Shown here piece after piece: positions 11,880 through 28,575 of a stretch of 42,924 nt of DNA; positions within the stretch are counted from its first letter, which is position 1; the number at the start of each line of letters is the position of its first letter. A program made the position numbers and the translations under genes. Below the pieces are notes generated by a model that was given only the letters and a program-made list of their open reading frames with translations, had not been told where the DNA came from and did no database searches. Source of the DNA: a virus (taxonomy: Duplodnaviria; Heunggongvirae; Uroviricota; Caudoviricetes). Location of the stretch: IMG/VR virus record IMGVR_UViG_3300042549_003167; one strand, 5' to 3'.

Positions 11880-11892
11880 GTCAATTTTTTAC

Positions 11893-11944: not shown

Positions 11945-12169
11945 TCATATTGTCCATTTAGCCCTTGGACAAGCTCCGGAACCTACAGGAGTAAACACCT
12001 TAATTTTTGTAGCGCACCCGCAAGCTTTGCAATGTTGTACTATGGCATCTTTTGCCCATTCCTCGCAATCCATACATATTTCAAGTCTTTTTTCGGCCAC
12101 TTCTTTTTGTTCTTCTGTTGGGTTCATAGCAGTCATATAAGACAGCAAGATTTCTTTTACTTTGTTCAT
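11945..12169 (-). CDS. Small Cys-rich metal-binding protein, DUF6171-like (74 aa)
   Basis: RLEICMDC...CKACGC...CPRAKW pattern. Confidence 0.7.
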   Translation of the reverse strand: MNKVKEILLSYMTAMNPTEEQKEVAEKRLEICMDCEEWAKDAIVQHCKACGCATKIKVFTPVGSGACPRAKWTI

Positions 12170-12957
12170 TTTTTAAAGTATTTTTTGTAGTAGTTTTCGT
12201 TAAATTTAAAAGCATTTATATTAATGTACTTGTAATATTTATCGTAGGTATCTTCTAATTCTTTTGATGTTATTGGTTTTAATGGTTCTGTTGGAATATC
12301 GCCCGATGCTTTTTTATGGTTTTCAAAATTGTCTGGATTGTCTATATCACCACTTTGTTTATGCCCAGCTACCTCTGACGGGTCGCCCCAATTAAAGCAA
12401 TATGATGGCAAATAATCTTTATTATGCTCATCTAATTGACCTTCATCTCTTAGTTTAGTGTACCAACTTAAACCTTCAAATCCTGTTTTATCCACTCTAA
12501 AGCCTATCTCCCTTATTTTATCCATTTTAATAATAACACTAGCTTCCATTGTATTCATTACTAATTCAAGCTTATCTTGTGTAGCAAAAAAGCTCATCTC
12601 TGGTTTCCAAGCATCTTTACCATTAGCCTCTATCCCATCTACTGCTTGTTCTAAATGCCATGGAAGGTAAATATCATCATCATCTGCTAGCATAAAATAA
12701 TCACCCGTAGCATGAGTAACTGCATCTCTACATATTTGCCCGCGATTCTCGTATGGATTACCGGTTAGATAGTCTATGTCATTATTAATTATAATTACTG
12801 CTGGGTCTTGAATATCTAATTCATAGGAATTTTCCTTATCAGTATTAAATATTATTAACTCCTTATTTGGATATGTCTGAGCATAAAACTGCGATAATAT
12901 TCTTCTTACGCAATAATACCTTCTGTAGCTAGTACAAACAAAACTTACTTTTTTCAT
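12166..12957 (-). CDS. Glycosyltransferase, GT2-like (263 aa)
   Basis: VSFVCTSYRR, QTYPNKELII and ADDDDIYLPWHL motifs. Confidence 0.85.
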   Translation of the reverse strand: MKKVSFVCTSYRRYYCVRRILSQFYAQTYPNKELIIFNTDKENSYELDIQDPAVIIINNDIDYLTGNPYENRGQICRDAVTHATGDYFMLADDDDIYLPWHLEQAVDGIEANGKDAWKPEMSFFATQDKLELVMNTMEASVIIKMDKIREIGFRVDKTGFEGLSWYTKLRDEGQLDEHNKDYLPSYCFNWGDPSEVAGHKQSGDIDNPDNFENHKKASGDIPTEPLKPITSKELEDTYDKYYKYININAFKFNENYYKKYFKK

Positions 12958-12966
12958 ATTTTTAAT

Positions 12967-13767
12967 TTACCAAATACCCCCATCCATAAATTCTTGCAAA
13001 TATGGGGTAGCATTTGTGTTTATATTTTTTTCTTTTATAAAATCTAAAATTCTTTCTCTGCCATATGATTGTTGCATAGCGACACCACCTTCTAATAAAA
13101 TGCCATTTTCATCATTTTCGGTATATTTAATTCTATCTGGTATTTCTGTTTGTAATAATTTAGCAAATCTTTGTTCAAAGATTGCCGTATTATCATCCAC
13201 ATAATTATACCATCCCGACTTAGCTATAATTCCTGATAAAACTTCAGGTCTGCAACCAAATACTCTAGTAGACCTTTCATCTCCACCTATATACGCTCTA
13301 TGCCAAGTAATAGCATCGGCATCTTTTAAATGAACCTTTAATTCAGATAATATATCATATTTTAATATAGATGTACCAGTAAGTTTTAAACACATATTAG
13401 GGCTAGCGCCATAGCACCTATTGCCCATTAATGCGGCTTGCATAATACCTAATGCCATAGATGTAGAATCTCCTCTTTGCTTATTTAATCTGGGAGTATA
13501 ATGAATTACTTTATACTCTTCTAGCTGTTTAAAATATTTTTCTGCTTCATATAGCAAATTAACATCTGAACAATAATTATTAGGTTTCACTACATTGTAT
13601 GGGTCTTCTATTTGATGCAGTTCGCAAGCTTGCTCTGCTTCTATGTTTGGCGTAGAGCTGTCAACAATAACAACAGCAAAATTATTTTTTATTATTTGTG
13701 CATTTAAAGATAAAGACAATAATACTTGCTTTATTCTATTGCATGATGTCAACATTAATACATTCAT
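12967..13767 (-). CDS. Putative GT-A-like protein in the glycosylation operon (266 aa)
   Basis: VVIVDSS and CLKLTG segments resemble degenerate GT-A folds; operon context. Confidence 0.5.
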   Translation of the reverse strand: MNVLMLTSCNRIKQVLLSLSLNAQIIKNNFAVVIVDSSTPNIEAEQACELHQIEDPYNVVKPNNYCSDVNLLYEAEKYFKQLEEYKVIHYTPRLNKQRGDSTSMALGIMQAALMGNRCYGASPNMCLKLTGTSILKYDILSELKVHLKDADAITWHRAYIGGDERSTRVFGCRPEVLSGIIAKSGWYNYVDDNTAIFEQRFAKLLQTEIPDRIKYTENDENGILLEGGVAMQQSYGRERILDFIKEKNINTNATPYLQEFMDGGIW

Positions 13768-13768
13768 G

Positions 13769-14452
13769 TTATTTAATTAATCCTTGAGCGAATTTCTCTT
13801 TGTTTGTATGCTCCCAACTATATAGAGCATGGTGTTTTAAAATAGTATTTTGGAATGTATTATAATCTCCATATTCTATATTATGTTTTTCTAAATTTTC
13901 TCTCATAATTCTGTGGTATTCCCATATTTCATTGCTAAATTCATTATCTAATCCTAAGTATTTTTTTACTTCAATACCAGTCCATCCGGGCGAATATGGC
14001 GCATTGCTATAATCTTTAACCAATGGCATATTATCAATCATATGCTTAACCATAGGATGATTTTTAACAAAAGCATAAACATTATTTGTAATAGTATAAT
14101 CACAATGCTGCCAGCCATACCCCCAATGTCCAAAAACAATGGCATCTCTATTTTCTATTGGCAATGTATTTAGATTATCAATATATTCCCAATCTATATC
14201 CAAATACCATCCTCCATAATTATATACAATAAGCCATCTTAACATATCTGCACAAAAAACATAATCTTTATTTTCATACATTAACCAATACATCTCTTTT
14301 AAATTTTCTGGTATTTCTGGGAGATTATTATCAGTCCATAAAAAATACTCGTAATCAGGATGATTTTCTTTTAATTGATTTGATATATGTCTTTCTCTAA
14401 TTGGGATTTCGTATCCACCCACCCAAATTTGATGTATAATTTTTGGAATCAT
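13769..14452 (-). CDS. Glycosyltransferase, GT32/OCH1-like DXD family (227 aa)
   Basis: MIPKIIHQIW, ADMLRW, YNYGGWYLDID motifs. Confidence 0.9.
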   Translation of the reverse strand: MIPKIIHQIWVGGYEIPIRERHISNQLKENHPDYEYFLWTDNNLPEIPENLKEMYWLMYENKDYVFCADMLRWLIVYNYGGWYLDIDWEYIDNLNTLPIENRDAIVFGHWGYGWQHCDYTITNNVYAFVKNHPMVKHMIDNMPLVKDYSNAPYSPGWTGIEVKKYLGLDNEFSNEIWEYHRIMRENLEKHNIEYGDYNTFQNTILKHHALYSWEHTNKEKFAQGLIK

Positions 14453-15033
14453 TATTTAAACTTAATTAATTGACTACCTCTAAAAGTGGGTAAATACTCA
14501 TTCCATTCTATATGTTCTGCATATTCTTTTAAAAAGAAATCAGTAGAATTTCTTACATCTTGATGATAATCATAGTCGTCTAATATTACATAATTACATT
14601 TCCCTATGCATAGTTTTAAATCATGAACTTTGCAATCATAATCGTGGCATCCGTCTATAGAAATTAAGTCAAAGAACTGAGGCAATTCGGTTTCTAATTG
14701 AGAGTCTTTGTGAAGTATTTCCCATTTTGCATTTCCTGTATAATATTTTGCTATGTTTTCATTAGCAATATTATTATCACCATAAGTTTCCAAATCCCAA
14801 CCCAGTGCATATTCTAATTTATCTGATGCCAACATTGTAGGTAAGAATGAAAAACCAAATCTAACTCCTATTTCTAAAAATGATGTTGGCTGTATTACTT
14901 TACCCAATGCCCAATACCATTCAAAACAATTACCACTCCATACATAATCGTATGAATCGTATTTAGTGAAAAATTCAGATGGAATAACATCATGAATTGA
15001 TTGTGGTTTTTCTTTTAATAATTCTTCTATCAT
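14452..15033 (-). CDS. Class I SAM-dependent methyltransferase, Methyltransf_24-like (193 aa)
   Basis: FLEIGVRFGFS and ISIDGCHDY motifs. Confidence 0.85.
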   Translation of the reverse strand: MIEELLKEKPQSIHDVIPSEFFTKYDSYDYVWSGNCFEWYWALGKVIQPTSFLEIGVRFGFSFLPTMLASDKLEYALGWDLETYGDNNIANENIAKYYTGNAKWEILHKDSQLETELPQFFDLISIDGCHDYDCKVHDLKLCIGKCNYVILDDYDYHQDVRNSTDFFLKEYAEHIEWNEYLPTFRGSQLIKFK

Positions 15034-15959
15034 AATAAAACGGATTTTTTTTCTAGTTTTTGAATAATTTCATAATATTTTTTTGAAGCAGTCCCTTCAT
15101 TAATTTCTAGATTTTTGTTGTAAGGAAGCTCATTCATATAAATAGCTTTGTAAAATAATCCGCCTGCTGCGTCTGTGACACCGGCGTTGTGGAAAATATT
15201 TAATCTATCCCAATCGGCTTCTGTACTTGTTGCCCATGCAAATTCTAAATCGGGATGGCAAATGCTTTCGTAGCCTAGTTTCCAGCCATTCCAAAGTACG
15301 GCCCACATATCTGAACACCATATTTGTAGTTCATGGTATGATGGATTAGCTGCTTTCTTTTCGTTGTTTATGTCGGTAATTTCTTTGAATAATCTTTCGC
15401 AATCTTTTTCTACATTAGCCCAAAATTGAGCGTTGATTCCTTTCATTAAGTATTGAGCGCCTATTGCATTTAGTTCGTTGTCTTTTACTAATTGCTTGTC
15501 TATGTCTACTATTTCGCACATTTTATCTAATATATCTTCTCCTTTGGAAATTATGTAGTCGTGGCCTATGTACCACCTGCAATCACTTCCGTACCATTTA
15601 TTATCTTGAAGGAATTGTTTCCAATTTATTGGTTTGGTAAATACAATATCGCAGTCATGATAAAGTATAGCTTCGTTCTCTAGTTCTGGATTTTTTGTAA
15701 AGTGTTGCTTTAAAATGTTGGGACGGATGGAAGAAATGTAATGTCTAGTTTCTCTAGTGTCATCATAAAAAAAGAATCTAGCAGGATAGCCATTAGCTAA
15801 TTTGCTATACTCTTCGGGGATTTCTCCTGTCTGCTTCCAACAAACAATATCTACTTGATTAAGATTAATGCCCATTTCAATAAAGTTATTTAGCATTGTT
15901 TCGAGTTGCCAAGAATAATACTTTATAGCGGGCTGAGCGCAAATAAATCTTAGGTTCAT
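15030..15959 (-). CDS. Glycosyltransferase resembling plant peptidyl-serine galactosyltransferase/HPAT (GT96/GT95-like, 309 aa)
   Basis: YYSWQ, SIRP, LYHDCDIVF, IGAQYLM and WCSDMWA motifs in the order recalled for SGT1. Confidence 0.6.
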   Translation of the reverse strand: MNLRFICAQPAIKYYSWQLETMLNNFIEMGINLNQVDIVCWKQTGEIPEEYSKLANGYPARFFFYDDTRETRHYISSIRPNILKQHFTKNPELENEAILYHDCDIVFTKPINWKQFLQDNKWYGSDCRWYIGHDYIISKGEDILDKMCEIVDIDKQLVKDNELNAIGAQYLMKGINAQFWANVEKDCERLFKEITDINNEKKAANPSYHELQIWCSDMWAVLWNGWKLGYESICHPDLEFAWATSTEADWDRLNIFHNAGVTDAAGGLFYKAIYMNELPYNKNLEINEGTASKKYYEIIQKLEKKSVLL

Positions 15960-15970
15960 ACTTTTTTTAG

Positions 15971-15992
15971 CAAAGTTATTTAATTAAATTAA
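15971..15992 (-). promoter_or_regulatory. TAnnTTTG promoter with upstream TTAATTTAATT element
   Basis: Minus strand TTAATTTAATT-AAA-TAACTTTG ending 11 nt before ATG 15959. Confidence 0.65.
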
Positions 15993-15997
15993 TAAAC

Positions 15998-16375
15998 CTA
16001 ATATTCTTTGTAAGATTTTTCTTCAGTTAGTTCTGAGCCGTATTTTGTATTGATTTGTTTTTTGATGATGGCTCTGACATCGTTTAATTGGTAAACCTCT
16101 CTAGCTAGTTCTACGAACTTCTCTCCAAAGTCTTTTTTGTGTTCATAGTCCCTTAGACTATCTTCTACTGCCCATAGTTTTTTGTTTATGGAATAAAGCT
16201 CTTGGACTAGGGGGTCTATTAAAATGACTGAGTGTTTCTTGTGGAGGGCGTTTTTTACCATTTTCCACTCTTTATCTATGTTTATAAGCTTTTCTGTATC
16301 GTGTATTAAAAGCTTTTTTATGGTTAGGATGGTATATTTGTCCACCACTTCACCGATGCTGACTTCTATTTTCAT
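15998..16375 (-). CDS. DUF6165-like protein (125 aa)
   Basis: IEVSIGEVVDKYTILTIK and LYSINKKLWAVEDSLR motifs; family usually lies beside glycosyltransferases. Confidence 0.75.
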   Translation of the reverse strand: MKIEVSIGEVVDKYTILTIKKLLIHDTEKLINIDKEWKMVKNALHKKHSVILIDPLVQELYSINKKLWAVEDSLRDYEHKKDFGEKFVELAREVYQLNDVRAIIKKQINTKYGSELTEEKSYKEY

Positions 16376-16405
16376 GGGTTAAAGATAAGATTTTTACCAT
16401 TAATC

Positions 16406-16425
16406 ATTAATTTAATTAAATTAAT
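16406..16425. promoter_or_regulatory. Perfect 20-bp AT palindrome in a divergent promoter region
   Basis: ATTAATTTAATTAAATTAAT between divergent genes starting at 16375 (-) and 16449 (+). Confidence 0.65.
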
Positions 16426-16448
16426 TACTACTTTTACAAAAACACTAT

Positions 16449-17810
16449 ATGCCTACAAGCTACCCCATCTACAAAGATTCTGTCCGAAATTGGTTTCTGC
16501 AAAATGTCCCTTTAGATACTACTATATTAGATATAGGAGCAGGATGTGGTACTTATAGTGATTTACTAAGGGGATATGGTTACAAAATGGATGCAGTAGA
16601 AATATGGGAGCCATACATAAAACAATATGGGTTAAAGAGTAAGTATGGGTGGGTGTATGAAGAAAATGTCCTTAAAATGCCTCTTGATGTACTTGGAGCC
16701 TATGATTTTTATATATTGGGTGATGTTTTGGAACATTTGTCTGTGGAAGATGCTGAATGGCTAATGAAGTTTTTAAAGTTTGCAGGCAAACAATATCTTA
16801 TTGCAGTCCCTTATTCTATGGAGCAATCCGAGTATGAAGGCAATGTTTATGAAACCCACTTACAGCCTGACCTTACGCCTGAAATAATGCTAGAAAGATA
16901 CCCTGATTTAGAACTGCTTTATGGCAATAATTTCTATGGTTATTACACAAATAAAAAACAAAAACATGAAAAAGCTTATGTCCTTTATGCTGACGATTCC
17001 TATTATGACCTTGTGGATGCTTGTTGTCGTTCCATTAGAAATTTTAGTACTTATCCTATTTATGTTTATATGCTTAACTCGAACAATAAAGTATTAGTAG
17101 AAAATACCATTACCAAAAGATGGGATTGCGATGTAAAGCATTTAAACAAGCGTAATGATTATATAGTTAGAGAAGATAAACAGATTTATAAGCTTTTAAT
17201 TGAAAGACCTAAGATTGTTAAAGATGCTTTGAAGTATGCTGAAGTTGTGGCTTATGTGGACACAGATAGTGTAGCTAGCCCTTACTGCGATAGAATATTT
17301 GACTATTACAATAGCGAAGATGGTTACCCTTTTTTTACTGCTGGTATTTATGATTATCTTATTATCAATGGTAGAGGTGGAGCGAATAGCCGAGATGAAA
17401 TGAATAAAACATTAGAATATGATGTTTGTAGATTATTTAATGTAGACCAAAAAGAATCAAGAGAAAATTACAGGCAAACAGGATATTTTGTTTGTGGGCA
17501 AAAGTCTATATGGTTTTTGAATGAATGGGCGTGGATGTGCAATCACCCAAGAATTTTAGATGGGAATGCCATATACGCACCTTTTAACGAGGAAACAATA
17601 ATGAATGTGTTACGATGGAAGTATAAGCTTGATAGAGGTTTGCCATTAGTTTATGTTAATGGATTACGCAAGGGGCTTGAGTTTAAAGGGCATGAGTACT
17701 TTATGGGTGAATGGTTTAAAGTGCCAGCACAAAAAGATGATTTACTTTTTTACCATGGAGAAAAAGATATAAATAAGATTAATGAATTTATAGAATATTT
17801 AAAATTATAA
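16449..17810 (+). CDS. Methyltransferase-glycosyltransferase fusion (453 aa)
   Basis: N-terminal ILDIGAGCG and GDVLEHL (class I MTase); C-terminal YVDTDSV DxD, NEETIMN and FYHG (GT8/GT-A-like). Confidence 0.8.
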   Translation: MPTSYPIYKDSVRNWFLQNVPLDTTILDIGAGCGTYSDLLRGYGYKMDAVEIWEPYIKQYGLKSKYGWVYEENVLKMPLDVLGAYDFYILGDVLEHLSVEDAEWLMKFLKFAGKQYLIAVPYSMEQSEYEGNVYETHLQPDLTPEIMLERYPDLELLYGNNFYGYYTNKKQKHEKAYVLYADDSYYDLVDACCRSIRNFSTYPIYVYMLNSNNKVLVENTITKRWDCDVKHLNKRNDYIVREDKQIYKLLIERPKIVKDALKYAEVVAYVDTDSVASPYCDRIFDYYNSEDGYPFFTAGIYDYLIINGRGGANSRDEMNKTLEYDVCRLFNVDQKESRENYRQTGYFVCGQKSIWFLNEWAWMCNHPRILDGNAIYAPFNEETIMNVLRWKYKLDRGLPLVYVNGLRKGLEFKGHEYFMGEWFKVPAQKDDLLFYHGEKDINKINEFIEYLKL

Positions 17811-17812
17811 TT

Positions 17813-18010
17813 ATGACACCAAAAGAAAAAGCACAAGAATTATTTGATAAATATTTTGAGGTAACAAATAATTATTATCAAGCTAAAGAATGTGCATTAA
17901 TATCAGTAGTAGATGAGATAATGAATGTTTTAAATAAGCACTTGCCTGCTGAAGATTATAAAGTAATGAATTATTACCAAGAAGTTAAACAAGAAATAGA
18001 AGCATTATGA
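17813..18010 (+). CDS. Hypothetical protein (65 aa)
   Basis: MTPKEKAQELFDKY start, a type common in Bacteroidota phages; coupled to next gene. Confidence 0.7.
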   Translation: MTPKEKAQELFDKYFEVTNNYYQAKECALISVVDEIMNVLNKHLPAEDYKVMNYYQEVKQEIEAL

Positions 18011-20055
18011 AGATAGTTTATTTAGCTCCTCACCTCAGCACAGGTGGATGTCCACAATTTATTTTAAAGCGTATTCAATCTTTGCTTACGCATACCGAAG
18101 GCATTGAGGTTTATGTCGTTGAGTATAGTTATCATGGTGATGCTTATGTGGTACAAAGAAATGCCATAAAAAAATTACTTGGTAAGAATTTTGGCGCACA
18201 TTTTAGTACAAAAGTAGAAATTGCAGATTATATAGGACTTATTAACCCCGATATAATTCACATAGATGAAATGTCTGAAAGATTAGACCAACATTTGATG
18301 AAAGCTTTGTATAGAAATGATAGAAAATGGTATATCATTGAAACTTGCCATGATATTGCATTTGACCCAAGTACAAAGGTTTTTCACCCAGATTTGTTTA
18401 TGTTCTGTAGCCCTTACCATGAAGATACATTTGCTGATTTGGAAAGCTTGTATGAAACAATAGAGTACCCTGTTGATTTTAAAGTTATTGGTAATAAAGA
18501 AAAGATTAAAGCCAAGATGCAGTTAGGAATGGACTTAAATAAGAAGCATATTCTTAATGTTGGTTTATGGACTAAAGGTAAAAACCAAGGTGAGATGCTT
18601 GAGATAGCTAAAAAATATCCAGAAATGATGTTTCATTCAGTTGGTAACCAAGCAGGCAATTTTGCAGATTATTGGCAGCCATTTATGAAAGATGTCCCAT
18701 CTAATGTTAAGATATGGGGTGAGAGAGCAGATGTAGAATTGTTTATGACTGCGGCAGATGTTTTTATGTTTAATTCTACTTGGGAATGTAACCCATTAGT
18801 TTTGCGTGAGGCTATGGCACATACGCTACCGATAGTGGCTAGAAACTTACCACAATATGGCGATATGTTTACCAAATACCTAGACCCTATTGATACAGAT
18901 TTAAGAACCATTACTAGAAAATATAAAACTTCTAATGATAAAAATTCAAGAGCATTTGCCTTAAAGCATGAAAGAGCGTATAAGGAACTTATGAAGATAC
19001 CAATTAGAAAACAGCAAGTATCAATCACGCAACACTTTGTAAATCAGCCATTTTTAGAGATAAAAGGTAATAGTGAAAGCGACTTTTTAGTTCAATTTTT
19101 AGACGAAAAAGGTAGTATATATTACCAAAATACGATAAAAGCAAACCATTGGGTACGATTAAATAGGCAGTGGTACACAAAATGGAGGACAAAAGTTTTC
19201 GAGGGGAAAGACTTGATTTACAATAGTACCATGGACTTGGAAGGTAAAAAAGTTTTTATAGCTATTGATAGTAAGAGTCTTGGAGATACATTGGCTTGGA
19301 TTCCGTATGTGGAAGAGTTTAGAAACAAGCATAATTGTACGGTGGTTTGCAGTACATTTTGGAATAAGATATTGGACTATCCAGAGATTGAATTTGTGGA
19401 GCCGGGGACGATGATAGGATGTTATGCCATGTACACTTTGGGGTGGCATTGGAACGAAGATAAAGAACCAACCCTTTGCAATACCATTCCTTTGCAACAA
19501 TCAGCTAGTAATATCCTTGGATTGGATTATGTGGAGCTAAAACCACGCTTAAAGTACGATATTGGAGATAATAAGTATGGCAAGTATGTCACAATCGCCA
19601 CAAACAGCACTGCGGGGCTTAAATTTTGGCTTAAACCATCTTGGCAACAAGTTATCAACCACCTACACGAAAGGGGCTACAAGGTCATAAATACGTCCAA
19701 AGAACGCAATCTATTTGAAAACTGCTACCAATTAGAAGATACAAGCATAGAAAATACCATGTCTGTTATCTATCATAGTGAATTTTTTGTAGGGCTTTCG
19801 TCAGGTTTAAGTTGGACAGCCTTTGGGCTTGGTAAGAAGGTGGTAATGATTTCAGCCTTTACAGAAGCTGACCACGAGTTTGACTGCATCAGACCCCGCA
19901 ATAACAATGTATGTACAAATTGTTGGAATGACCCTAAGATTAAATTCGATGCGGGAGATTTTAATTTCTGCCCGCATCATAAGGGGACTGAGAGAATGTT
20001 TGAGTGCCAAACTAGTATCACACCCGAAATGGTTATTCAGCAATTGCCTCTGTAA
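18007..20055 (+). CDS. GT4-type glycosyltransferase fused to an Aah/TibC-like protein O-heptosyltransferase domain (682 aa)
   Basis: N-terminal HLSTGG, KGKNQ, ECNPLVLREAM (GT-B/GT4); C-terminal DSKSLGDTLAWIPY, FFVGLSSGLSW and CTNCWND...CPHH...EC Cys cluster. Confidence 0.8.
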   Translation: MKIVYLAPHLSTGGCPQFILKRIQSLLTHTEGIEVYVVEYSYHGDAYVVQRNAIKKLLGKNFGAHFSTKVEIADYIGLINPDIIHIDEMSERLDQHLMKALYRNDRKWYIIETCHDIAFDPSTKVFHPDLFMFCSPYHEDTFADLESLYETIEYPVDFKVIGNKEKIKAKMQLGMDLNKKHILNVGLWTKGKNQGEMLEIAKKYPEMMFHSVGNQAGNFADYWQPFMKDVPSNVKIWGERADVELFMTAADVFMFNSTWECNPLVLREAMAHTLPIVARNLPQYGDMFTKYLDPIDTDLRTITRKYKTSNDKNSRAFALKHERAYKELMKIPIRKQQVSITQHFVNQPFLEIKGNSESDFLVQFLDEKGSIYYQNTIKANHWVRLNRQWYTKWRTKVFEGKDLIYNSTMDLEGKKVFIAIDSKSLGDTLAWIPYVEEFRNKHNCTVVCSTFWNKILDYPEIEFVEPGTMIGCYAMYTLGWHWNEDKEPTLCNTIPLQQSASNILGLDYVELKPRLKYDIGDNKYGKYVTIATNSTAGLKFWLKPSWQQVINHLHERGYKVINTSKERNLFENCYQLEDTSIENTMSVIYHSEFFVGLSSGLSWTAFGLGKKVVMISAFTEADHEFDCIRPRNNNVCTNCWNDPKIKFDAGDFNFCPHHKGTERMFECQTSITPEMVIQQLPL

Positions 20056-20212: not shown

Positions 20213-20227
20213 ATATTTTTATTTTTA

Positions 20228-20251: not shown

Positions 20252-20263
20252 ATCCAAATGTAG

Positions 20264-21466
20264 CTACAACCCTGCTTTGTTTAATCTTTCATTTAATTCT
20301 TGAATAGCTTTTACTAGGTATGTGATATATCCTGTTGGGTTATACATATAATATCCATCTTTATCTTTCCCATAAGCCTCTGGGAAATTATCTACCATAT
20401 CTTGAGCTAAGAATCCTTTATAAACTACTGATTCGTCTTCATCAGCTATATGATTATATGTTTTTAATTTAGCATTATTAAATAATGGTAAAACAGATTC
20501 TTCAACATCTTTAATATTTGATTTTAACCTTGCATCAGAAGGGCCTGTATAAAATTGTAATGTTGATGATGTAAGATAATTTATACCTCCTGTTTGGCCT
20601 CCACTTGAATTCATAAAATAAATATAGTTACCACCAGGATATGTATTTTGAATTGATATAAGATTATATTGTAATGCAGAACCTTTTATATTTAATAATC
20701 CAGCTCCTACTGCAGTTGTACTACCAATACAAACTTCAGCTCTATTTGTAATACGCATAACTTCAAGAACAGTATCAGAAAAAAAGTTTCTTGTATAAAA
20801 TCCAATAGAACCATAAGCAACATTATCTGCTCCTAAAATACCTCTAATATTAGCTACATTTATATTATTGTTATTAAAAAACCCAATATTTAAACCATCG
20901 CCAATTGCAGTTGTTCCTGTAAGTCTTAGACTTATCATATCTAGGTTTTCAACACCACTACCTGCCTTTGCCTTTTCTAAACTTAATAATGCATTAAGAC
21001 TAGTTGTACCAATACCTACATTACCATTGTCTAATAATATCAATTTTGGATTAGTTCCATAAGCAGTACCATTTGCTAAATATGCTCCAAAGTTTAAATA
21101 GTTGCTTGAATCACTATTAATTTGCCAATAATAATCATTTGCACTTCTATTTAATTTTATACCATTGCTACTTTGTATTTGAACACTACTAGAGAAAGTA
21201 GCTGCTCCTGCATTTAAATTTGCATAACCATCTGCATTAGTTAACATAGAAAAAGTAGTGCCTGTATATTCAATTCTTCTATATCCTGCTATTGAACCAA
21301 CAGCAAAACCTGTTGCAGCACTTACCCTTAATACCCCACTAAAATTACTTGTACCAGTTACTTCTAATTTATAACTACCACTAGGTGCTGCTCCTATTCC
21401 TACGTTGTTAGATGCGTCAGTTAGTATTGCTAAAGGGATTGTACCCAGTTTTTGTGTAACACCCAT
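20264..21466 (-). CDS. Tail fibre/spike with C-terminal peptidase S74 intramolecular chaperone (400 aa)
   Basis: GNVGIGT shaft repeats; SDARLKSNI...GFLAQD...LVKAIQEL chaperone. Confidence 0.85.
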   Translation of the reverse strand: MGVTQKLGTIPLAILTDASNNVGIGAAPSGSYKLEVTGTSNFSGVLRVSAATGFAVGSIAGYRRIEYTGTTFSMLTNADGYANLNAGAATFSSSVQIQSSNGIKLNRSANDYYWQINSDSSNYLNFGAYLANGTAYGTNPKLILLDNGNVGIGTTSLNALLSLEKAKAGSGVENLDMISLRLTGTTAIGDGLNIGFFNNNNINVANIRGILGADNVAYGSIGFYTRNFFSDTVLEVMRITNRAEVCIGSTTAVGAGLLNIKGSALQYNLISIQNTYPGGNYIYFMNSSGGQTGGINYLTSSTLQFYTGPSDARLKSNIKDVEESVLPLFNNAKLKTYNHIADEDESVVYKGFLAQDMVDNFPEAYGKDKDGYYMYNPTGYITYLVKAIQELNERLNKAGL

Positions 21467-21467
21467 A

Positions 21468-22598
21468 TTATTTGTTTTTTAACTCGTTTATTTGAGATTG
21501 TAATGATGTGATTAATGCTTGTTGCTCTTGTACTGCTTTAACTAAAGCTGATGTAATAGCTTGATAATCTAAACCAATAAATGTTTTATCGCCATTTATA
21601 TTTTCACAATATGCTTGAGGAATAAAATCTTTTACTTCTTGTGCAATAAATCCTAAATGCTTATCAACAGATTCTTCTTCATCTATCATTCTATAAAGAG
21701 TAGGTTTTAAACCTAATATAGCAGAAAGTCCAATAGTAGATTGTTCAAAATCTTTCTTTTTATTTACATCAGATAAAGGAGTAAAAACTCCAGTAGTAGG
21801 ACTAATATTAGCTTTTGAAACACCTTGATAACCAAAATAAAAATTAGCATCTCCACCATTAACTAAATTCCATACTTGATTTCCTGTATTAATTAAAGAA
21901 AGTCCTTCATTATGACTATTTGCTGATTGTTTTATTTGTACTTGACCCCCACTTGTGATAACCATTCTATAAGCAGATGCATTATTATCATAAACTATAA
22001 ATCCTAAAGTATCACTACCAATAATAAAGTTTCTAAAACTTGTTGGTGCAAAATTCATATAAGCATCAGTAGTACCACCTATTGATAATTTTGTAGTAGG
22101 ACTTGTTGTACCAATACCTAAATTTCCTGATGCATTTATTGTAACTCTTGTAACATTATTTGTACCAAATCTTAATATATTATTTGCATTATCTCCTTCA
22201 ATGTAATTATTACCACCTCCAAAACCTACATAACCAGTTGCAGATAATACTATACTATTACTAAATGTAGCTAAACCTGTTGAGGATATGGTCAATCTTC
22301 TTGAACCTCCAGCACCAAATACTAAATTACCAGATGCGTTATTATTCCAAATTGATAAACCATCTGCATCTCTGCCGTCATAACCAATATCTCCTATTTG
22401 AGTACCTGCTGAGTTTCTAAATGCTATATAATTATCTACACCTGTTGGAGTTAATCTTAATACTTCTCCACTTCCAGTAATAGTTGTAGTAGAACCATCA
22501 TCTTGTATTAAGCTATTGCCTATGGTAGTTCCATTTGCTTTTAGTACATAGTTGGTGGTAGTCAAAGGTGCTGTGGCAAGTATGGTATTTAATGACAT
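21468..22598 (-). CDS. Tail fibre/spike with C-terminal peptidase S74 intramolecular chaperone (376 aa)
   Basis: GNLGIGTTSP repeats; SDVNKKKDF...GFIAQEV...LVKAVQEQ chaperone. Confidence 0.85.
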   Translation of the reverse strand: MSLNTILATAPLTTTNYVLKANGTTIGNSLIQDDGSTTTITGSGEVLRLTPTGVDNYIAFRNSAGTQIGDIGYDGRDADGLSIWNNNASGNLVFGAGGSRRLTISSTGLATFSNSIVLSATGYVGFGGGNNYIEGDNANNILRFGTNNVTRVTINASGNLGIGTTSPTTKLSIGGTTDAYMNFAPTSFRNFIIGSDTLGFIVYDNNASAYRMVITSGGQVQIKQSANSHNEGLSLINTGNQVWNLVNGGDANFYFGYQGVSKANISPTTGVFTPLSDVNKKKDFEQSTIGLSAILGLKPTLYRMIDEEESVDKHLGFIAQEVKDFIPQAYCENINGDKTFIGLDYQAITSALVKAVQEQQALITSLQSQINELKNK

Positions 22599-22609
22599 TT
22601 TTTATTCTT

Positions 22610-25600
22610 TTATATTTGTTCTACAATTGGTTCAATTGTTTCAGCTGGTTCAGCTGGTTCAGTTGTTTCAGTTGGCTCAATTGGTTTTAATGGTTCCACT
22701 ATTACCTTACCATTTTCATCTGTTATATCTGTATCCATAATAAATTCGTCTTTTCTTTCACCTATTACCATCCAAGATATTTCATCTGTTGAATTTGCAT
22801 TTTGACTTTCTATGTAAATAATATTACCAATAACCTTTCCTTTGACTAAATCCCAACCACTTTCATTTGTTGTAAAACATTGTACTTCTCTACATAATGC
22901 TTCAAATGTTCCATCAGTCATAGTAGATATTTCGTCTATATTAGCTTGAGCTTTACCGTTTACTAAGGTAAGTTTGCCTCTATAAATCAAATCTGCTTGA
23001 GGTGATTCAACACTAGTATGACGTAAATTATGTGTTTCTTTTAAATTTGAAAGGGGATGTGGAATTAAAAATGATTTTGAAGAAGCAGAGAAAGCACCTG
23101 CTACAACCACATTACCATTGTTAGCAATTGTCATTCTAGCACCAAAACCATCAGCATTGAAACTATAATATATAGTTCCTGCTGTAGCACCTGCTGAGCT
23201 TTGCCAACTAAATTTACCATTACCTGCATTGTAATCACTTGTTCCATATCCTGAAGTTCCCCATTGTATATTTCCTACAAAACCACTTGAACCTAAAATA
23301 AGTGTACCGTATGTTGTTGTATTTCCACTAGAGTCAATTTTTACTTTATCTGTACCTGCTATAGAAAGGTATATTTCTGAACCGCCTATTGCTATTGGCT
23401 GATAAGACCCAAAAAAAGTATTATTTACACCGAATATAGTGCTTCTACCTGAACTAAAAGTTCCTCCATTATCTATTCTAACTCCGTAAGCAGTTCCACC
23501 AAAAGCTGCTGAAGTACCATTTGCACTATTATATACTTGAAATTTTTGGCTTGGGCTGACACCAACACCAAACTGACCTGATGAATTTATTCTTGCAGCC
23601 TCAACGAGAGTTTGTCTTGTACTACCTGAGCCTACTGATGGAGCTGTTGAAAATATAATATTAGATGTAGCACCATTACCTGTTCCTAAACCTGCACTTA
23701 TATAAACAGCTCCACCTTCATTATTAGTACCTGTTGTAGAATCTGCACCTTTTAAAGTTAATGCAGGAGCACTACCTAATGTACTTTGGTTCATACCAAT
23801 AGTAGTAGCTGTATCCCCACCAAATGATAATCTAAAACTTGGAGCTGTTGTTCCAATTCCAATTAAACCATTACCTTGGATTCTCATTATAGTGCTAGTA
23901 GTATGAGCACTATTATAAAACGAATGGAAATCCATATAAGTATATGGACTTGTAAATGACATTCCAATAGCACCTACTACATTACCACTATCGTGCCAAA
24001 TAATATTTTTCTTGTAGTTTGCACTTCCACCCCAAGATGGCATCTCCATCTTAATATAGTTAACATCAGCACTAGTTGATGGATAATATATACTTAAAGG
24101 AGAAGTTGCATTAGTTGTTCCAATACCAACATTCCCTGCAGTAGTTATTCTCATTCTTTCTACAGCTGTATTTAATGAACTACCAGCAGTTCCAACAGGA
24201 GCAGTATAAAAAGTTAAATCACCACCAACTCCTGTTCCTGTACCTTGTCCTCCCTGTATTCTAAATTCAGCACCAGCTATGTTTGTTCCACTACCATCTG
24301 TACCTTCTATTATTGCAGTTTGTGGGGTAGCTGATGACTGACCATTACCAATGAAAAGACTTGTACCATCATCATAAATTAAGCCATTACCAATTGTATT
24401 TGTTCCAGTAAATTTAGCGTGATAACCACTTGTACCACTACCACCAATACCACTATAAGCTCCTACTGAATAAGAGTAAGCATAAACTACTACTATATCA
24501 TTTAATTGACAAGCTGTTGCTAATATTATACTTGTACCATTGGTTGCAGTATATTCTGATTGAGCTAGATTAGAACCATTATAAAACACATCTATTAATC
24601 CTTGTGTATATGTTACTGTGAATGTTGTCTGAGCAGCTGTGGCTGTGAAGGTTGTTATTGTTCTTAGTGCATTGGTTGGTAAGAATGCAGTGAGGTAGTT
24701 ATCAATTTCAACAATATTACCAGCAGCCAAAGGAGCTGTCATAACTACTGTTGTACCATCTGTTGCTGTATAATCTACACCATTTACAAACTTAACACCA
24801 TTCACAAATACATCTATCATTCCAAGGTTGTAACCATTGGTTACAGTGAATGTTGTTTGACTTGCTGTGGCAGTAAAAACTTCAACACTTCTTGCTGAAG
24901 AGCTTGCAAATCCAGAAGATCCAGAAGACCCTGAAGATCCACTTGTTCCACTTGTACCTGATGATCCTGCAGTTCCTGTTCCACCTGCTGTTCCTGAAGA
25001 ACCAGATGTTCCTGTTGCTCCACTTGAACCACTTGTTGCACTGGTACCACTTGATCCAGATGTGCCTGATGTAGCAGAAGTTCCAGATGAACCATCACTA
25101 CCTGCTGTACCTGACGTACCTGCAGTGGCTGATGTTCCACTAGATCCAGAGGTGCCACTTGTTCCACTTGTTGCAGATGTGCCACTAGACCCATCTGTAC
25201 CACTAGTTCCTGATGTTCCACTACTTGCTGATGTACCACTTGATGCTGATGTACCAGAACTTCCAGAAGTTCCACTAGATCCATCAGTTCCAGACGAGCC
25301 ATCTGTACCACTTGTTCCACTTGATGCAGAAGTTCCACTAGATGCAGATGTTCCACTGCTTCCAGAGGTTCCACTTGATCCATCAGTGCCAGATGAACCA
25401 TCAGTACCAGATGATCCATTAGTTCCACTTGTTGCACTAGAACCACTAGAGCCACTTGTACCACTAGACCCATCCCCTCCACTCGCACCATCTAAGTTAA
25501 CAGACCAAGCAGAATAAGTTCCACTACCCACTGTTCTAGTTGGTGCTGCGAATGATAAAGAACCTGTTGCTGGATTATAAGCTGTAACCTCACACTCTTG

Positions 25601-27205
25601 GAAGTTATTAGCGTCATAAACCACAATGATAGATTGAGCTACTGTATATGCTAATTGAGTACCTACAGTTATTGTTCCTGCATTACCCAATGTAAATGTT
25701 GTTGTTGATGTTGTGGCATATCTGTCACCTGAAAGACCTGCTGTTCCACTAGATCCTGAAGTTCCACTTGATCCATCTGTACCAGCTGTACCAGACGATC
25801 CACTTGTTCCAGAGCTAGCTGATGTTCCTGATGATCCATCAGTACCAGTAGTTCCACTCGTACCACTTGATGCACTTGTTCCAGAAGAACCATCTGTTCC
25901 ACTAGTGCCACTAGAGGCTGATGTTCCTGAAGAGCCAGCTGTTCCATTTGTACCACTTGTTCCAGATGATCCGTCTGTACCTGAACTACCATCAGTGCCA
26001 CTAGAGCCATCTGTTCCAGATGTACCACTAGTTCCTGAAGAAGCACTTGTACCACTAGTTGCTGATGTACCTGAGCTACCACTAGTTGCAGATGTTCCAC
26101 TAGAACCTGATGTTCCAGAAGAAGCTGATGTACCAGATGAACCATCAGTTCCACTAGATCCACTTGATCCACTAGATGCTGAGGTTCCACTTGACCCACT
26201 TGTACCTGATCCACCAGATGTTCCAGAAGAGCCAGATGTACCAGCATCTCCTGATGTTCCACTTGACGCAGAGGTTCCACTAGTTCCTGAAGAACCAGCA
26301 GTTCCAGATGAGCCAGATGTTCCACTAGAGCCACTAGCCCCTGCTGAGCTTTTAAGTAGGGCTACAGAGGGGCTAATTTTTATGTATACAGGAAGTATTC
26401 CTGTTAAAGGTTGTATGTCTGTTAAGTTTCCAGGTGCTGCTGGATCGAAGTATAATATATCTCCAACACTACCAACAGTGATGTTTAAATCATTCACTAT
26501 TCTTCCTAAAGGTCTAACTCTTAGATTTCCTTGTTCTGGTGTATTAACAGATGTCACTATACCAGCAATGCTCATTAAATCATTTTCTGTAGTTCCTGTT
26601 ACTTTGACAAACTGCCCACTAGAATTTATCTTAACAAAGTCTCCTTCATTGAAGGCTGCGTAAATAGTTGAATTAATGTCTAAAGAAAAGAAGTCTGTAA
26701 GATAGTTTCTGAAGCGAAATCTACCAGTGATGTCATTGAACCAGTTGGTTAAATCTCCTATTTGAGATCTAATCTGTTCTGTTGGTGTGATGATGGGAAG
26801 ACCATCCAAGCCTATATTAAAGAACAATCCTGTAAAACCTTCCACAGGAAAGTTATTACCCATTCCTGAGTTGTCTGTAACAAGATTGTAAAGATCAACA
26901 TCCTCAATAACAATAGTGCATGATGTCCCTGCTGGGTTTACGCTTGTTATAGATTGAATTCTATAAGCGTAACCATTAGGAAGACCAAACCACATTCCTG
27001 CTACTAAGTTGCTAGCATTATAAAGAAGTTGGGGGGTTGTATCGTAAGAGCTGGTTTCTTGGGGTAGTACTGTAAGAGTACAAGTAAAAATAAATGGAGA
27101 GCCATCCCAAGGGGACAACGCATTACTATACGTAGAAGTTGTGCTTGTAGACCCAAAGTTGATACTTGCAGGAATACAAATTGGTGGGGTTATTAAACTC
27201 GCCAT
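22610..27205 (-). CDS. Long tail fibre/appendage protein with Gly-Ser/Thr stalks (1531 aa)
   Basis: Two long (G-S/T-X)n tracts, two FTATAxQTTFTV modules, GNVGIGT repeats, C-terminal SKSFLIPHP...ESPQADLIYRG domain. Confidence 0.85.
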   Translation of the reverse strand: MASLITPPICIPASINFGSTSTTSTYSNALSPWDGSPFIFTCTLTVLPQETSSYDTTPQLLYNASNLVAGMWFGLPNGYAYRIQSITSVNPAGTSCTIVIEDVDLYNLVTDNSGMGNNFPVEGFTGLFFNIGLDGLPIITPTEQIRSQIGDLTNWFNDITGRFRFRNYLTDFFSLDINSTIYAAFNEGDFVKINSSGQFVKVTGTTENDLMSIAGIVTSVNTPEQGNLRVRPLGRIVNDLNITVGSVGDILYFDPAAPGNLTDIQPLTGILPVYIKISPSVALLKSSAGASGSSGTSGSSGTAGSSGTSGTSASSGTSGDAGTSGSSGTSGGSGTSGSSGTSASSGSSGSSGTDGSSGTSASSGTSGSSGTSATSGSSGTSATSGTSASSGTSGTSGTDGSSGTDGSSGTDGSSGTSGTNGTAGSSGTSASSGTSGTDGSSGTSASSGTSGTTGTDGSSGTSASSGTSGSSGTAGTDGSSGTSGSSGTAGLSGDRYATTSTTTFTLGNAGTITVGTQLAYTVAQSIIVVYDANNFQECEVTAYNPATGSLSFAAPTRTVGSGTYSAWSVNLDGASGGDGSSGTSGSSGSSATSGTNGSSGTDGSSGTDGSSGTSGSSGTSASSGTSASSGTSGTDGSSGTDGSSGTSGSSGTSASSGTSASSGTSGTSGTDGSSGTSATSGTSGTSGSSGTSATAGTSGTAGSDGSSGTSATSGTSGSSGTSATSGSSGATGTSGSSGTAGGTGTAGSSGTSGTSGSSGSSGSSGFASSSARSVEVFTATASQTTFTVTNGYNLGMIDVFVNGVKFVNGVDYTATDGTTVVMTAPLAAGNIVEIDNYLTAFLPTNALRTITTFTATAAQTTFTVTYTQGLIDVFYNGSNLAQSEYTATNGTSIILATACQLNDIVVVYAYSYSVGAYSGIGGSGTSGYHAKFTGTNTIGNGLIYDDGTSLFIGNGQSSATPQTAIIEGTDGSGTNIAGAEFRIQGGQGTGTGVGGDLTFYTAPVGTAGSSLNTAVERMRITTAGNVGIGTTNATSPLSIYYPSTSADVNYIKMEMPSWGGSANYKKNIIWHDSGNVVGAIGMSFTSPYTYMDFHSFYNSAHTTSTIMRIQGNGLIGIGTTAPSFRLSFGGDTATTIGMNQSTLGSAPALTLKGADSTTGTNNEGGAVYISAGLGTGNGATSNIIFSTAPSVGSGSTRQTLVEAARINSSGQFGVGVSPSQKFQVYNSANGTSAAFGGTAYGVRIDNGGTFSSGRSTIFGVNNTFFGSYQPIAIGGSEIYLSIAGTDKVKIDSSGNTTTYGTLILGSSGFVGNIQWGTSGYGTSDYNAGNGKFSWQSSAGATAGTIYYSFNADGFGARMTIANNGNVVVAGAFSASSKSFLIPHPLSNLKETHNLRHTSVESPQADLIYRGKLTLVNGKAQANIDEISTMTDGTFEALCREVQCFTTNESGWDLVKGKVIGNIIYIESQNANSTDEISWMVIGERKDEFIMDTDITDENGKVIVEPLKPIEPTETTEPAEPAETIEPIVEQI
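22624..22685 (-). repeat. Short 9-bp tandem repeats encoding an EP(T/A) tail
   Basis: PIEPTETTEPAEPAETIEPIVEQI at the C-terminus. Confidence 0.6.
24911..25480 (-). repeat. Gly-Ser/Thr-X coding repeat tract 2 of the 1531-aa fibre (about 190 aa)
   Basis: SSG/TSG/TDG/TSA triplets. Confidence 0.95.
25736..26342 (-). repeat. Gly-Ser/Thr-X coding repeat tract 1 of the 1531-aa fibre (about 200 aa)
   Basis: SSG/TSG/TDG/TSA triplets. Confidence 0.95.
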
Positions 27206-27213
27206 GTTTCATT

Positions 27214-28575
27214 TTAAACTTTTGCTAAGAAATAAAGAGTCAGTGTGGAACTACCTGTTGAACTATATCCTGCATTTGTAGGATTCAAACTGTAGAAAGT
27301 CATTCCTGTATATGTGCTATTTTGGAACATTGAATAGTTACCTGTGGTATTTCCTACAAAAGTTCTTGTAAGCACTACAGTGTTATTTACACCACTTGTG
27401 TAAGCACCCACAATAACATTTCCTAATGGTTGTGTGATATCAAATATTGTTGCAGAAGTAACAGTGAATGCCCATCCTGGAGCACCAATCAAATTAGCTC
27501 CATTAGGATCTGTAGCACTAGCTACAGTAGATAACAATCCATTACTAGTATTAATTACAATAGTGTACACTTCTAATGTTCCTATTGCTGTAGCACCAGA
27601 CGTACCAGATGATCCTGTTCCACCACTAGTACCTGTTGTACCAGCAGTTCCACTTGAACCATCAGTTCCAGTTGTACCAGCAGTACCACTAGACGCACTT
27701 GTACCAGCAGTTCCACTTGTACCTGCTGTTCCACTAGAGCCAGATGTGCCAGACGTACCACTTGATCCATCAGTACCATTGGTTCCACTAGAACCACTTG
27801 TTGCAGATGACCCACTAGTACCACTTGAACCATTGGTTCCAGAACTTCCTGAAGTACCTGAGCTACCGTCACCACCACTTGCACCATCTAGATTAATAAC
27901 CCAAGAGCTATATGTTCCAGATCCTACAGTGCGTGTAGGAGCAGCAAATACTAACAATCCTGTAATACTATCATAACTTACCACTTCACATTCTTGGAAG
28001 TTATTAACGTTATATGTAATGATGATAGACTGTACAGGAGTGTATGCAAGTCCTGTTCCTACAGTCATACTTCCACTATTACCTAATGTAAAAGAGTTAG
28101 TTGATGTTGTTCTATATCTATCTCCTGAAAGACCACTAGATCCACTAGAGCCACTAGAAGCAGCTGTACCAGCTGTACCTGTAAGACCACTAGAGCCTGA
28201 TGTACCTGCAGAACCACTTGTTCCTGTAGAACCAGAAGTTCCACTTGTACCCTTTACACCACTAGAACCAGAGCTTCCTGATGTGCCACTAGTACCAGAC
28301 CTACCACTAGATCCACTTGTACCACTAGCACCTGATGTGCCAGCAGTTCCAGATCTACCACTAGAGCCACTAGATCCTGAAGTTCCACTAGCACCAGATG
28401 TACCAGAAGAACCAAACAAACCTGCACCACATACAGCAGCATCAAGTTTCTCAATAATTGTTTCGAGATTGTCGTTGGTATTAATACCAGAGCATATTAA
28501 GTTAGGGCCTTCGTAGAATACGCAGGTCGAATCCAATATAACTGGACAAGGGGTTGCAGAGCAAGTAACGTTCAT
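27214..28575 (-). CDS. Virion fibre/collar protein with Gly-Ser/Thr stalks (453 aa)
   Basis: Cys-rich N-terminus CVFYEGPNLICSGINTNDNLETIIEKLD (type recalled from crAss-like fibre proteins), two GS/T tracts, module shared with the 1531-aa protein. Confidence 0.8.
   Translation of the reverse strand: MNVTCSATPCPVILDSTCVFYEGPNLICSGINTNDNLETIIEKLDAAVCGAGLFGSSGTSGASGTSGSSGSSGRSGTAGTSGASGTSGSSGRSGTSGTSGSSGSSGVKGTSGTSGSTGTSGSAGTSGSSGLTGTAGTAASSGSSGSSGLSGDRYRTTSTNSFTLGNSGSMTVGTGLAYTPVQSIIITYNVNNFQECEVVSYDSITGLLVFAAPTRTVGSGTYSSWVINLDGASGGDGSSGTSGSSGTNGSSGTSGSSATSGSSGTNGTDGSSGTSGTSGSSGTAGTSGTAGTSASSGTAGTTGTDGSSGTAGTTGTSGGTGSSGTSGATAIGTLEVYTIVINTSNGLLSTVASATDPNGANLIGAPGWAFTVTSATIFDITQPLGNVIVGAYTSGVNNTVVLTRTFVGNTTGNYSMFQNSTYTGMTFYSLNPTNAGYSSTGSSTLTLYFLAKV
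27594..27876 (-). repeat. Gly-Ser/Thr-X tract 2 of the 453-aa protein (about 94 aa)
   Basis: Triplet repeats. Confidence 0.95.
28132..28413 (-). repeat. Gly-Ser/Thr-X tract 1 of the 453-aa protein (about 94 aa)
   Basis: Triplet repeats. Confidence 0.95.

Follow-up and report, generated by a model that had tools for sequence, protein, structure and literature searches.

The enzyme island and its fibre neighbours

The 42,924-nucleotide stretch of DNA described here (the window, a term used below for the whole stretch) comes from a low-GC phage of the class Caudoviricetes, IMG/VR record IMGVR_UViG_3300042549_003167. It holds an island of eight genes, among them several for predicted glycosyltransferases (GTs) and methyltransferases, next to four genes for fibre proteins, two of which have collagen-like stalks crowded with Ser and Thr (Table 1). 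What would a phage do with such a set of sugar enzymes, and which molecule would carry the sugars? The proposal weighed below is that the enzymes decorate the phage's own appendages, with the fibre stalks as the leading candidates.

The open reading frames (ORFs) and domains lie at the positions given in the original prediction, which had counted about seven GT domains and two methyltransferases in the island. Six of these GT domains are supported by Pfam, NCBIfam or fold matches: GT2, GT32, a GT95/96-like GT-A, a retaining GT-A, a GT4 and a TibC/Aah-type BAHT (bacterial autotransporter heptosyltransferase) domain. The seventh, the 266-aa protein, is a lead only; it has no Pfam (relaxed Pfam included), NCBIfam or PHROG match, and its nearest named cluster in the Atlas is 'putative Glycosyltransferase' at 0.96. 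Both S-adenosylmethionine (SAM) methyltransferases are present, one being the Methyltransf_24 protein and the other the N-terminal domain of the 453-aa enzyme. The division of that enzyme into two domains combines weak Pfam methyltransferase matches at its start (residues 23-102) with an Atlas lead to GT8/Nucleotid_trans for residues 170-453. A fold search with its AlphaFold2 (AF2) model (pLDDT 89.1) returned class-I methyltransferases (BelI, NTMT1) together with retaining GT6 enzymes (GTA/GTB, alpha3GalT). By sequence, the PDB offered only marginal methyltransferase matches (E 0.18 and weaker), and relaxed Pfam gave no match for the enzyme's C-terminal part or for the 309-aa protein. The nearest Atlas clusters of the DUF6165 protein are likewise DUF6165, bacterial clusters included.

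Table 1. Genes and features of the locus, with positions in the window; the flanking regions are listed last
Feature	Position	Strand	Evidence or detail
Enzyme island	12166-20055		eight genes
GT2-family glycosyltransferase, 263 aa	12166..12957	-	Pfam Glycos_transf_2 E 1.6e-8
266-aa protein, possible glycosyltransferase	12967..13767	-	Atlas language-model lead
GT32-type glycosyltransferase, 227 aa, DXD sugar-binding region	13769..14452	-	Pfam Gly_transf_sug E 1.8e-12
Class I SAM methyltransferase, 193 aa	14452..15033	-	Pfam Methyltransf_24 E 1.4e-6, above cut-off
GT-A glycosyltransferase, 309 aa, candidate peptidyl-Ser/Thr O-glycosyltransferase	15030..15959	-	phrog_4417 E 7.7e-70
DUF6165 protein, 125 aa, conserved companion	15998..16375	-	Pfam DUF6165 E 6.3e-11
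Two-domain enzyme, 453 aa: N-terminal class I SAM methyltransferase and C-terminal retaining-type GT-A	16449..17810	+	
Two-domain enzyme, 682 aa: GT4 (~residues 160-295) and TibC/Aah-type BAHT (~residues 359-679)	18007..20055	+	Pfam Glycos_transf_1, Glyco_transf_9
Four fibre genes	20264-28575	-	
Tail fibre, 400 aa, C-terminal intramolecular chaperone domain	20264..21466	-	Pfam Peptidase_S74 E 2.4e-8; PHROG tail fibre families
Tail fibre, 376 aa, C-terminal intramolecular chaperone domain	21468..22598	-	Pfam Peptidase_S74 E 1.3e-9; phrog_1980 tail fibre E 5.9e-21
Large fibre protein, 1531 aa	22610..27205	-	Pfam Collagen E 9.9e-39; PHROG tail fibre families
1531-aa fibre, tract 2 (residues 573-773), Pro-free Gly-Ser/Thr-Ser, candidate acceptor	24887..25489	-	67 triplets, 116 Ser/Thr
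1531-aa fibre, tract 1 (residues 289-495), Pro-free Gly-Ser/Thr-Ser, candidate acceptor	25721..26341	-	69 triplets, 119 Ser/Thr
Short fibre protein, 453 aa	27214..28575	-	Pfam Collagen E 1e-24; PHROG tail fibre families
453-aa fibre, tract 2 (residues 231-332), Gly-X-Y, candidate acceptor	27580..27885	-	34 triplets, 53 Ser/Thr
453-aa fibre, tract 1 (residues 52-153), Gly-X-Y, candidate acceptor	28117..28422	-	34 triplets, 52 Ser/Thr
Small early-type genes	left end of window	+	
Lysis block	M15 endolysin 9391-9879, then small membrane proteins up to 11707	-	
Giant protein, 1668 aa	28728-33734		
Giant protein, >3048 aa	33734-42924		runs past window end

A TibC/Aah-type domain

The 682-aa protein carries the most telling domain of the island. 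Its residues 380-674 align with residues 61-377 of TibC (PDB 4rap) at E 6.2e-45, and the TIGR04414 model scores 236.9 bits against an equivalog cut-off of 200, with residues 359-679 spanning model positions 28-370 of 374. The GT9-like domain that the original prediction had taken for an initiating enzyme of the Aah/TibC type is thus a genuine BAHT. The only characterised members of this family glycosylate Ser in proteins. Aah and TibC modify their substrates while these are still in the cytoplasm, ahead of export.

Is the domain likely to be active? The residues that define TibC are known from its structure (PMC4358343), and most of them are kept. The catalytic base Asp-110 corresponds to D427; Thr-226, Lys-230 and Trp-305, which contact the phosphate and the sugar, correspond to T535, K539 and W603; and the four cysteines of the iron finger (Cys-339, 342, 358 and 370) are all present as C636, C639, C655 and C667, which predicts an iron finger here too. 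At the stereoselectivity position, Pro-300 in TibC, the window protein has Ser, the same as Aah. Across 21 phage BAHT copies the catalytic Asp, Lys-230, Trp-305 and the four cysteines never vary, and Thr-226 is either kept or replaced by Ser. Judged by these residues the phage copies look like active enzymes. The additional Pfam domain TibC_1st is matched in the protein of Microcystis phage Mel-JY01, not in the 682-aa protein of the window.

A GT95/96-like enzyme

The 309-aa protein belongs to PHROG 4417, a family of unknown function, and has no Pfam, NCBIfam or PDB sequence match. An AF2 model built on an alignment of 43 diverse homologues gave a GT-A fold at pLDDT 97.7; in these homologue sequences D104 is invariant and D102 nearly so (90% or more). 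When the model was searched against Swiss-Prot folds, the top nine matches were the Arabidopsis and Chlamydomonas peptidyl-serine alpha-galactosyltransferase (SGT1, GT96) and seven hydroxyproline (Hyp) O-arabinosyltransferases (HPATs, GT95), with template-modelling (TM) scores of 0.55-0.68 over the whole protein. The values are E 1.8e-10 and TM 0.64 for SGT1, and TM 0.66-0.68 with a root-mean-square deviation of 4.7-4.9 for the HPATs, against a TM of ~0.5 for galactinol synthase and glycogenin (generic GT8). Among PDB structures only generic retaining GT-A enzymes were found, with a TM of 0.52 at most. The likeness to SGT1 pointed out in the original prediction is therefore borne out by structure. 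With 11-17% identity in the structural alignment, the likeness is one of fold rather than demonstrated membership of either plant family.

The plant enzymes SGT1 and HPAT1-3, which the 309-aa enzyme matches over its whole length, start O-glycans on extensins, that is, on repetitive structural proteins (PMC4908140), and have been described as plant-specific (PMC4738400). They are Golgi proteins with a type II anchor; the 309-aa protein has no such anchor and no hydrophobic segment (highest 19-residue hydropathy 0.72).

Collagen-like fibres without proline

The two collagen-like fibre proteins have a common plan. The 1531-aa fibre consists of a head, a Gly-X-Y tract, a knot of ~80 residues, a second Gly-X-Y tract and a long Gly/Ser/Thr-rich distal part. 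The 453-aa fibre has a Cys-rich N-terminal domain, a tract, a knot, a tract and a C-terminal domain. The 80-aa knots of the two proteins are 71% identical. Together the four tracts comprise 612 residues, of which 340 are Ser or Thr and none is Pro, close to the figure of about 300 Ser/Thr estimated from the first inspection. Position 1 of the triplets is Gly in 180 of 204, Ala in 23 and Ser in one, and Ser/Thr fill 78% and 84% of the X/Y positions in the two fibres. Ser is encoded by codons of both the TCN and the AGY box, so the residue is under selection, not the DNA repeat. As in the collagen triple helix, Gly recurs at every third residue; in collagen the helix is stabilised by enrichment of Pro and Hyp at X and Y, whereas the window tracts do without any Pro.

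Long ORFs in other frames or on the opposite strand over the tracts (24841-25517, 25669-26663 and 27434-28516) encode Pro/Val/Glu/Leu-rich sequences and were rejected as genes, being by-products of the repeat.

Enzymes and fibres occur together

Do such enzymes and such fibres accompany each other in other phages? The GT4-BAHT protein has 196 relatives in IMG/VR, and all relatives with enough downstream flank contain Pro-free Gly-X-Y ORFs with 74-94% Ser/Thr at X/Y. Outside the lineage, Mel-JY01 encodes a GT4...BAHT fusion of 1226 aa and, 1.7 kb away, a fibre of the same Gly-X-Y kind that exceeds 1000 aa. In the 735-kb phage LR756501 a 695-aa Gly-X-Y fibre gene is divergent from two GT4/BAHT genes.

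The reverse test started from the fibres. IMG/VR records were chosen only for the DNA pattern (GGN-WSN-WSN)x6, and control records for (GGN-CCN-NNN)x6. BAHT was present in 16 of the 42 Ser/Thr-type records and in none of the 38 proline-type controls (Fisher p = 7e-6, a statistic that ignores shared ancestry and compares mostly fragmentary records with a control of a single repeat type, not random contigs). All but one of the 16 score above the curated TIGR04414 cut-off, and the records span 39-299 kb. Identity to the BAHT domain of the window is only 29-53%, and therefore the positives are not one clade of close relatives. In nine of them the BAHT gene lies within 10 kb of the repeat. The connection first drawn between the enzymes and Ser/Thr-rich fibres is thus backed by co-occurrence tested in both directions and by the domain fusions described below. 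Among 185,579 prokaryote genomes, BAHT relatives were limited to four short metagenome-bin contigs, with no Gly-X-Y ORF in their 3-13 kb.

Some of these loci have features of their own. One relative (L038:12857-22138) has an ORF of at least 3094 aa with 2730 residues of Pro-free Gly-X-Y sequence, 85% Ser/Thr at X/Y, far above any tract of the window. In the Mel-JY01 record (PP395634.1, L085:1-3052), two minus-strand, Pro/Val/Glu-rich 'hypothetical proteins' in GenBank are the antisense of the plus-strand Ser/Thr collagen-like fibre, which runs off the start of the record and whose true C-terminal part is annotated as a separate 177-aa coding sequence. At ~103,500-106,000 and beyond in LR756501.1, more than 1100 overlapping matches to the Ser/Thr Gly-X-Y pattern fall on one strand, far from the BAHT locus at ~580 kb; such a density implies a giant second collagen-like gene, as predicted from the pattern.

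Conserved core and accessory enzymes

How much of the island is a fixed set? Gene content was compared across 83 fetched related loci. The GT4-BAHT protein is found in 82 of them, the methyltransferase-GT-A enzyme in 66, the 309-aa enzyme in 46 and DUF6165 in 39. The GT2 gene occurs in a single locus, as does the GT32 gene (34% identity), and none of the 83 has the 266-aa protein or the 193-aa methyltransferase. The GT4-BAHT, methyltransferase-GT-A, 309-aa and DUF6165 proteins make up the conserved set. The other four, absent from nearly all relatives, form by this comparison a variable accessory set rather than part of the core. In many relatives the 453-aa and 682-aa proteins are a single in-frame ORF of ~1110-1170 aa. 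Because they are fused in this way, the methyltransferase, GT-A, GT4 and BAHT domains would work as one unit, which ties them, on this evidence, to one task.

Could that task be the modification of a host surface glycan? During infection the island might act on lipopolysaccharide, capsule or a host glycoprotein, blocking superinfection or freeing progeny from debris, roles already put forward for GTs in the tail-fibre regions of aquatic phages. GT2, GT32 and GT4 enzymes commonly build cell-surface glycans, the accessory enzymes vary among relatives in the manner of serotype-converting genes, and pelagimyophage GTs found with rfaE in a tail-fibre hypervariable region have been read as modifiers of the host O-chain (PMC7029224). 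Yet the eight island proteins all lack a membrane span (the top 19-residue hydropathy is 1.28, against 2.94 in a neighbouring lysis-cassette protein), and no flippase, polymerase, lipid-carrier transferase or other lipid-carrier enzyme was seen in the island. The conserved core, moreover, holds a BAHT, a family without a known non-protein acceptor, and action on host glycans does not predict a specific association with Ser/Thr-type Gly-X-Y proteins. A host target is accordingly judged improbable.

A second possibility, for which we see very little chance, is that the enzymes glycosylate bases of the phage DNA to evade restriction, as phage GTs in general often modify DNA (PMC12619734, PMC10202952). 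Such a role is at odds with the island proteins, among which no hydroxymethylase or other base-modifying enzyme was seen, and for the BAHT family (PMC4358343) and the GT95/96-like fold (Swiss-Prot fold matches) no characterised member that modifies DNA was seen. The four-domain BAHT fusion and the association with fibres argue for a protein target instead. Host-surface and DNA targets both rank low.

Stalks or other virion proteins?

It seems reasonable, then, to look for the acceptor among the virion proteins. The reading we favour, and hold to be fairly probable, is that the island encodes a cytoplasmic O-glycosylation system for the phage's own appendages, in which the Gly-X-Y stalks are the most likely acceptors of the BAHT module. 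Its closest rival agrees that virion proteins are glycosylated, but places the main acceptors elsewhere: in mucin-like poly-Ser/Thr linkers or tails of other appendage or capsid proteins, or in beta-structured, Gly/Ser/Thr-rich distal parts of the fibres. We regard it as unlikely overall, and it is strongest for the 309-aa enzyme.

The family of that enzyme is large (850 clusters at 50% identity), and in all five phages examined, each of another genus, the homologue lies directly after a gene with a poly-Thr/Ser tract, not with Gly-X-Y repeats. In Enterococcus phage phiFL1A this gene encodes the major tail protein (the capsid protein also has such a tail), in Clostridium phage phiCTP1 the tail tube protein, in Staphylococcus phage SA2 the major tail protein, together with a Thr-rich ORF, and in Lacticaseibacillus phage R3.3 a capsid-like protein. 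In these four Firmicute phages the tract is the C-terminal tail of the major tail or capsid(-like) protein; in Chryseobacterium phage MA9V-3 the homologue follows two genes with internal poly-Thr tracts. For the BAHT module, the link to the fibres came from a DNA pattern specific to Gly-X-Y, the genes are often less than 10 kb apart, and in Mel-JY01 and LR756501 the BAHT gene is directly beside the Gly-X-Y fibre, all of which speaks for the stalks. The two readings are also compatible with each other, as two initiating enzymes may serve different acceptors.

Several observations weigh against stalk glycosylation as the function of the island, besides the limits of the reverse test given above. 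The support is all comparative, and a glycan on the fibres is a prediction. Five proteins of a complete relative, G002, contain poly-Ser/Thr stretches at least 30 residues long (C1:22323-37264, L094); these proteins and the Gly/Ser/Thr-rich distal parts of the fibres are possible real or additional acceptors. The natural acceptor of TibC is a beta-helical passenger (PMC4358343), not a collagen-like strand, and the window has no autotransporter; the neighbours of its BAHT gene are phage fibres. Phage LR756504 is an exception: its BAHT gene lacks a Gly-X-Y ORF within 10 kb, and the whole record is free of strict pattern matches. In the alignment of the 682-aa protein with TibC, which begins at TibC residue 61, the region of the thumb hairpin (266-282), on which the dodecamer ring of TibC depends together with an N-terminal beta-barrel, is shortened, with ~10 gap residues, and the oligomeric state may differ from that of TibC. 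The donor may differ as well: Arg-286 of TibC, which contacts adenine N1 and explains the use of ADP-sugars (PMC4358343), is T584 in the 682-aa protein. Finally, five records of the window lineage, four of them 98-100% complete, contain no heptose-pathway genes, gmhA and rfaE included.

In at least one of the five mucin-like proteins of G002 (ORF 26970-27938), the Cys-rich start resembles the N-terminus of the 453-aa fibre by eye, with no alignment made. This suggests a family of interchangeable appendages built on one attachment module.

The sugar donor

If the sugar is not necessarily heptose, what could it be? Across the 21 phage BAHT copies the Arg-286 position is Arg in seven, Thr in six and Val, Leu, Ile or Met in eight, so that the donor may differ between phages. 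Because this Arg is replaced in the window protein, heptose is not claimed for its BAHT; whether the donor is heptose, or at least ADP-heptose, is uncertain, and it need not be ADP-heptose. A scan of 21 records for heptose-pathway genes found a gmhA-like gene in one and rfaE domain II above cut-off in one. The original prediction had seen no genes for nucleotide-sugar synthesis in the window; in the island, none was found among the eight proteins.

In the relative G002 (L088:54-1869), three genes converge on the GT4-BAHT gene: a 314-aa ORF without a Pfam match, an adenosine 5'-phosphosulfate (APS) kinase (Pfam E 5.8e-18) and a 143-aa cytidylyltransferase-like nucleotidyltransferase. This group of genes, to which nothing in the window corresponds, may hint at further chemistry, with activated sulfate or some other activated donor feeding into the glycan.

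Genome setting

The giant 1668-aa protein shows weak similarity to proteins of crAss-like gut phages, including one whose annotation reads putative RNA polymerase subunit, which points to a distantly crAss-related phage; its residues 400-511 match a PHROG exonuclease. The second giant protein (>3048 aa) has no family match. An identical copy of the 309-aa protein is encoded on a 118-kb contig, and complete relatives measure 110-119 kb. Megablast matched the island to none of 50,697 phage records. Scanning 11600-20400 for promoters and terminators yielded 41 candidates against 47.7 expected from shuffles, no better than chance, with no terminator between the convergent genes.

A model for fibre glycosylation and its relation to known systems

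How would glycosylation of the stalks proceed? The enzymes would act on the appendage proteins as these are made, late in infection. Glycans would start on Ser/Thr hydroxyls in the Pro-free (Gly-Ser/Thr-Ser)n stalks of the two collagen-like fibres (1531 and 453 aa), where the TibC-type BAHT, the GT95/96-like GT-A or both would place the first sugar. Extension of the glycan would then fall to the BAHT-linked GT4 domain and to the retaining GT-A domain, and its modification to the fused SAM methyltransferase. The variable extra enzymes (GT2, GT32, the 266-aa protein and the second methyltransferase) may diversify the glycan between related phages. The sugar donors would come from the host or from genes beyond the window. 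Roles of a fibre glycan in recognition, shielding or stability are speculation.

The nearest known relatives of this arrangement are the TibC-TibA and Aah-AIDA-I systems of E. coli (TIGR04414; PDB 4rap/4rb4). They have in common with the window a homologous catalytic domain with the same key residues, an enzyme gene close to the gene for a long, repetitive, Ser-rich protein, and a soluble enzyme, presumably cytoplasmic in the case of the window BAHT. They differ in that the window BAHT is phage-encoded, sits behind a GT4 domain and, in relatives, is also fused to a methyltransferase and a GT-A. Its candidate acceptor is a collagen-like stalk instead of a beta-helical autotransporter passenger. 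Further differences from TibC are the Thr in place of Arg-286, the shortened hairpin and the lack of heptose genes in the lineage.

For the use of phage-encoded GTs on virions there is a precedent in mycobacteriophages, whose enzymes, according to the citation of Freeman et al. 2023 in PMC12619734, decorate the phages' own structural proteins, the capsid and tail tube subunits bearing glycans at their C-termini. The layout so described looks like that of the Firmicute phages, where poly-Thr C-terminal tails stand beside homologues of the 309-aa enzyme. In the window, by contrast, it is fibre stalks carrying hundreds of Ser/Thr in collagen register that are the candidate acceptors, and a BAHT and a GT95/96-like fold are among the enzymes.

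A glycosylated collagen-like repeat would itself have a parallel. BclA of the Bacillus anthracis exosporium is a collagen-like glycoprotein that carries O-glycans, methylated sugars among their components, on its Gly-X-Thr repeats. Its repeats are Gly-Pro-Thr, in contrast to the Pro-free fibres of the window, and its place is the surface of a spore rather than a virion fibre. To our knowledge the enzymes that glycosylate BclA are unrelated to BAHT. In the open-access literature no paper was found on phage TibC-like enzymes, phage GT95/96 enzymes or glycosylated collagen-like phage fibres.

Implications

Taken to its full extent, the idea leads to a broader hypothesis, offered tentatively and with more doubt than confidence. 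The Pro-free collagen-like fibre helices of many aquatic phages (records of ~40 to 735 kb) might be stable and functional only after dense O-glycosylation by a cytoplasmic, multi-domain methyltransferase-GT-A-GT4-TibC-type enzyme. Swappable accessory transferases would rewrite the glycan, so that the sugar code of the fibre, and not only its protein tip, would set host range or evasion. Prokaryotic viruses would then have, in the GT95/96-like enzyme, a counterpart to the enzymes with which plants start extensin glycans.

If fibre glycosylation is real, glycosylation of virions would be a widespread trait of environmental phages and not an oddity of mycobacteriophages, and phages would be using an enzyme family that until now was recorded only in adhesin-glycosylating pathogenic bacteria. 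GTs in tail-fibre regions, now read as modifiers of the host O-antigen (PMC7029224), would need another annotation. There would be a testable reason for the absence of proline from the collagen-like stalks, and a source of compact, soluble enzymes for cytoplasmic O-glycosylation of repeat proteins. The pairing of 309-aa-type enzymes with poly-Thr tails on capsid and tail proteins in phages of Enterococcus, Staphylococcus, Clostridium and Lacticaseibacillus would make part of this directly testable in cultured systems.

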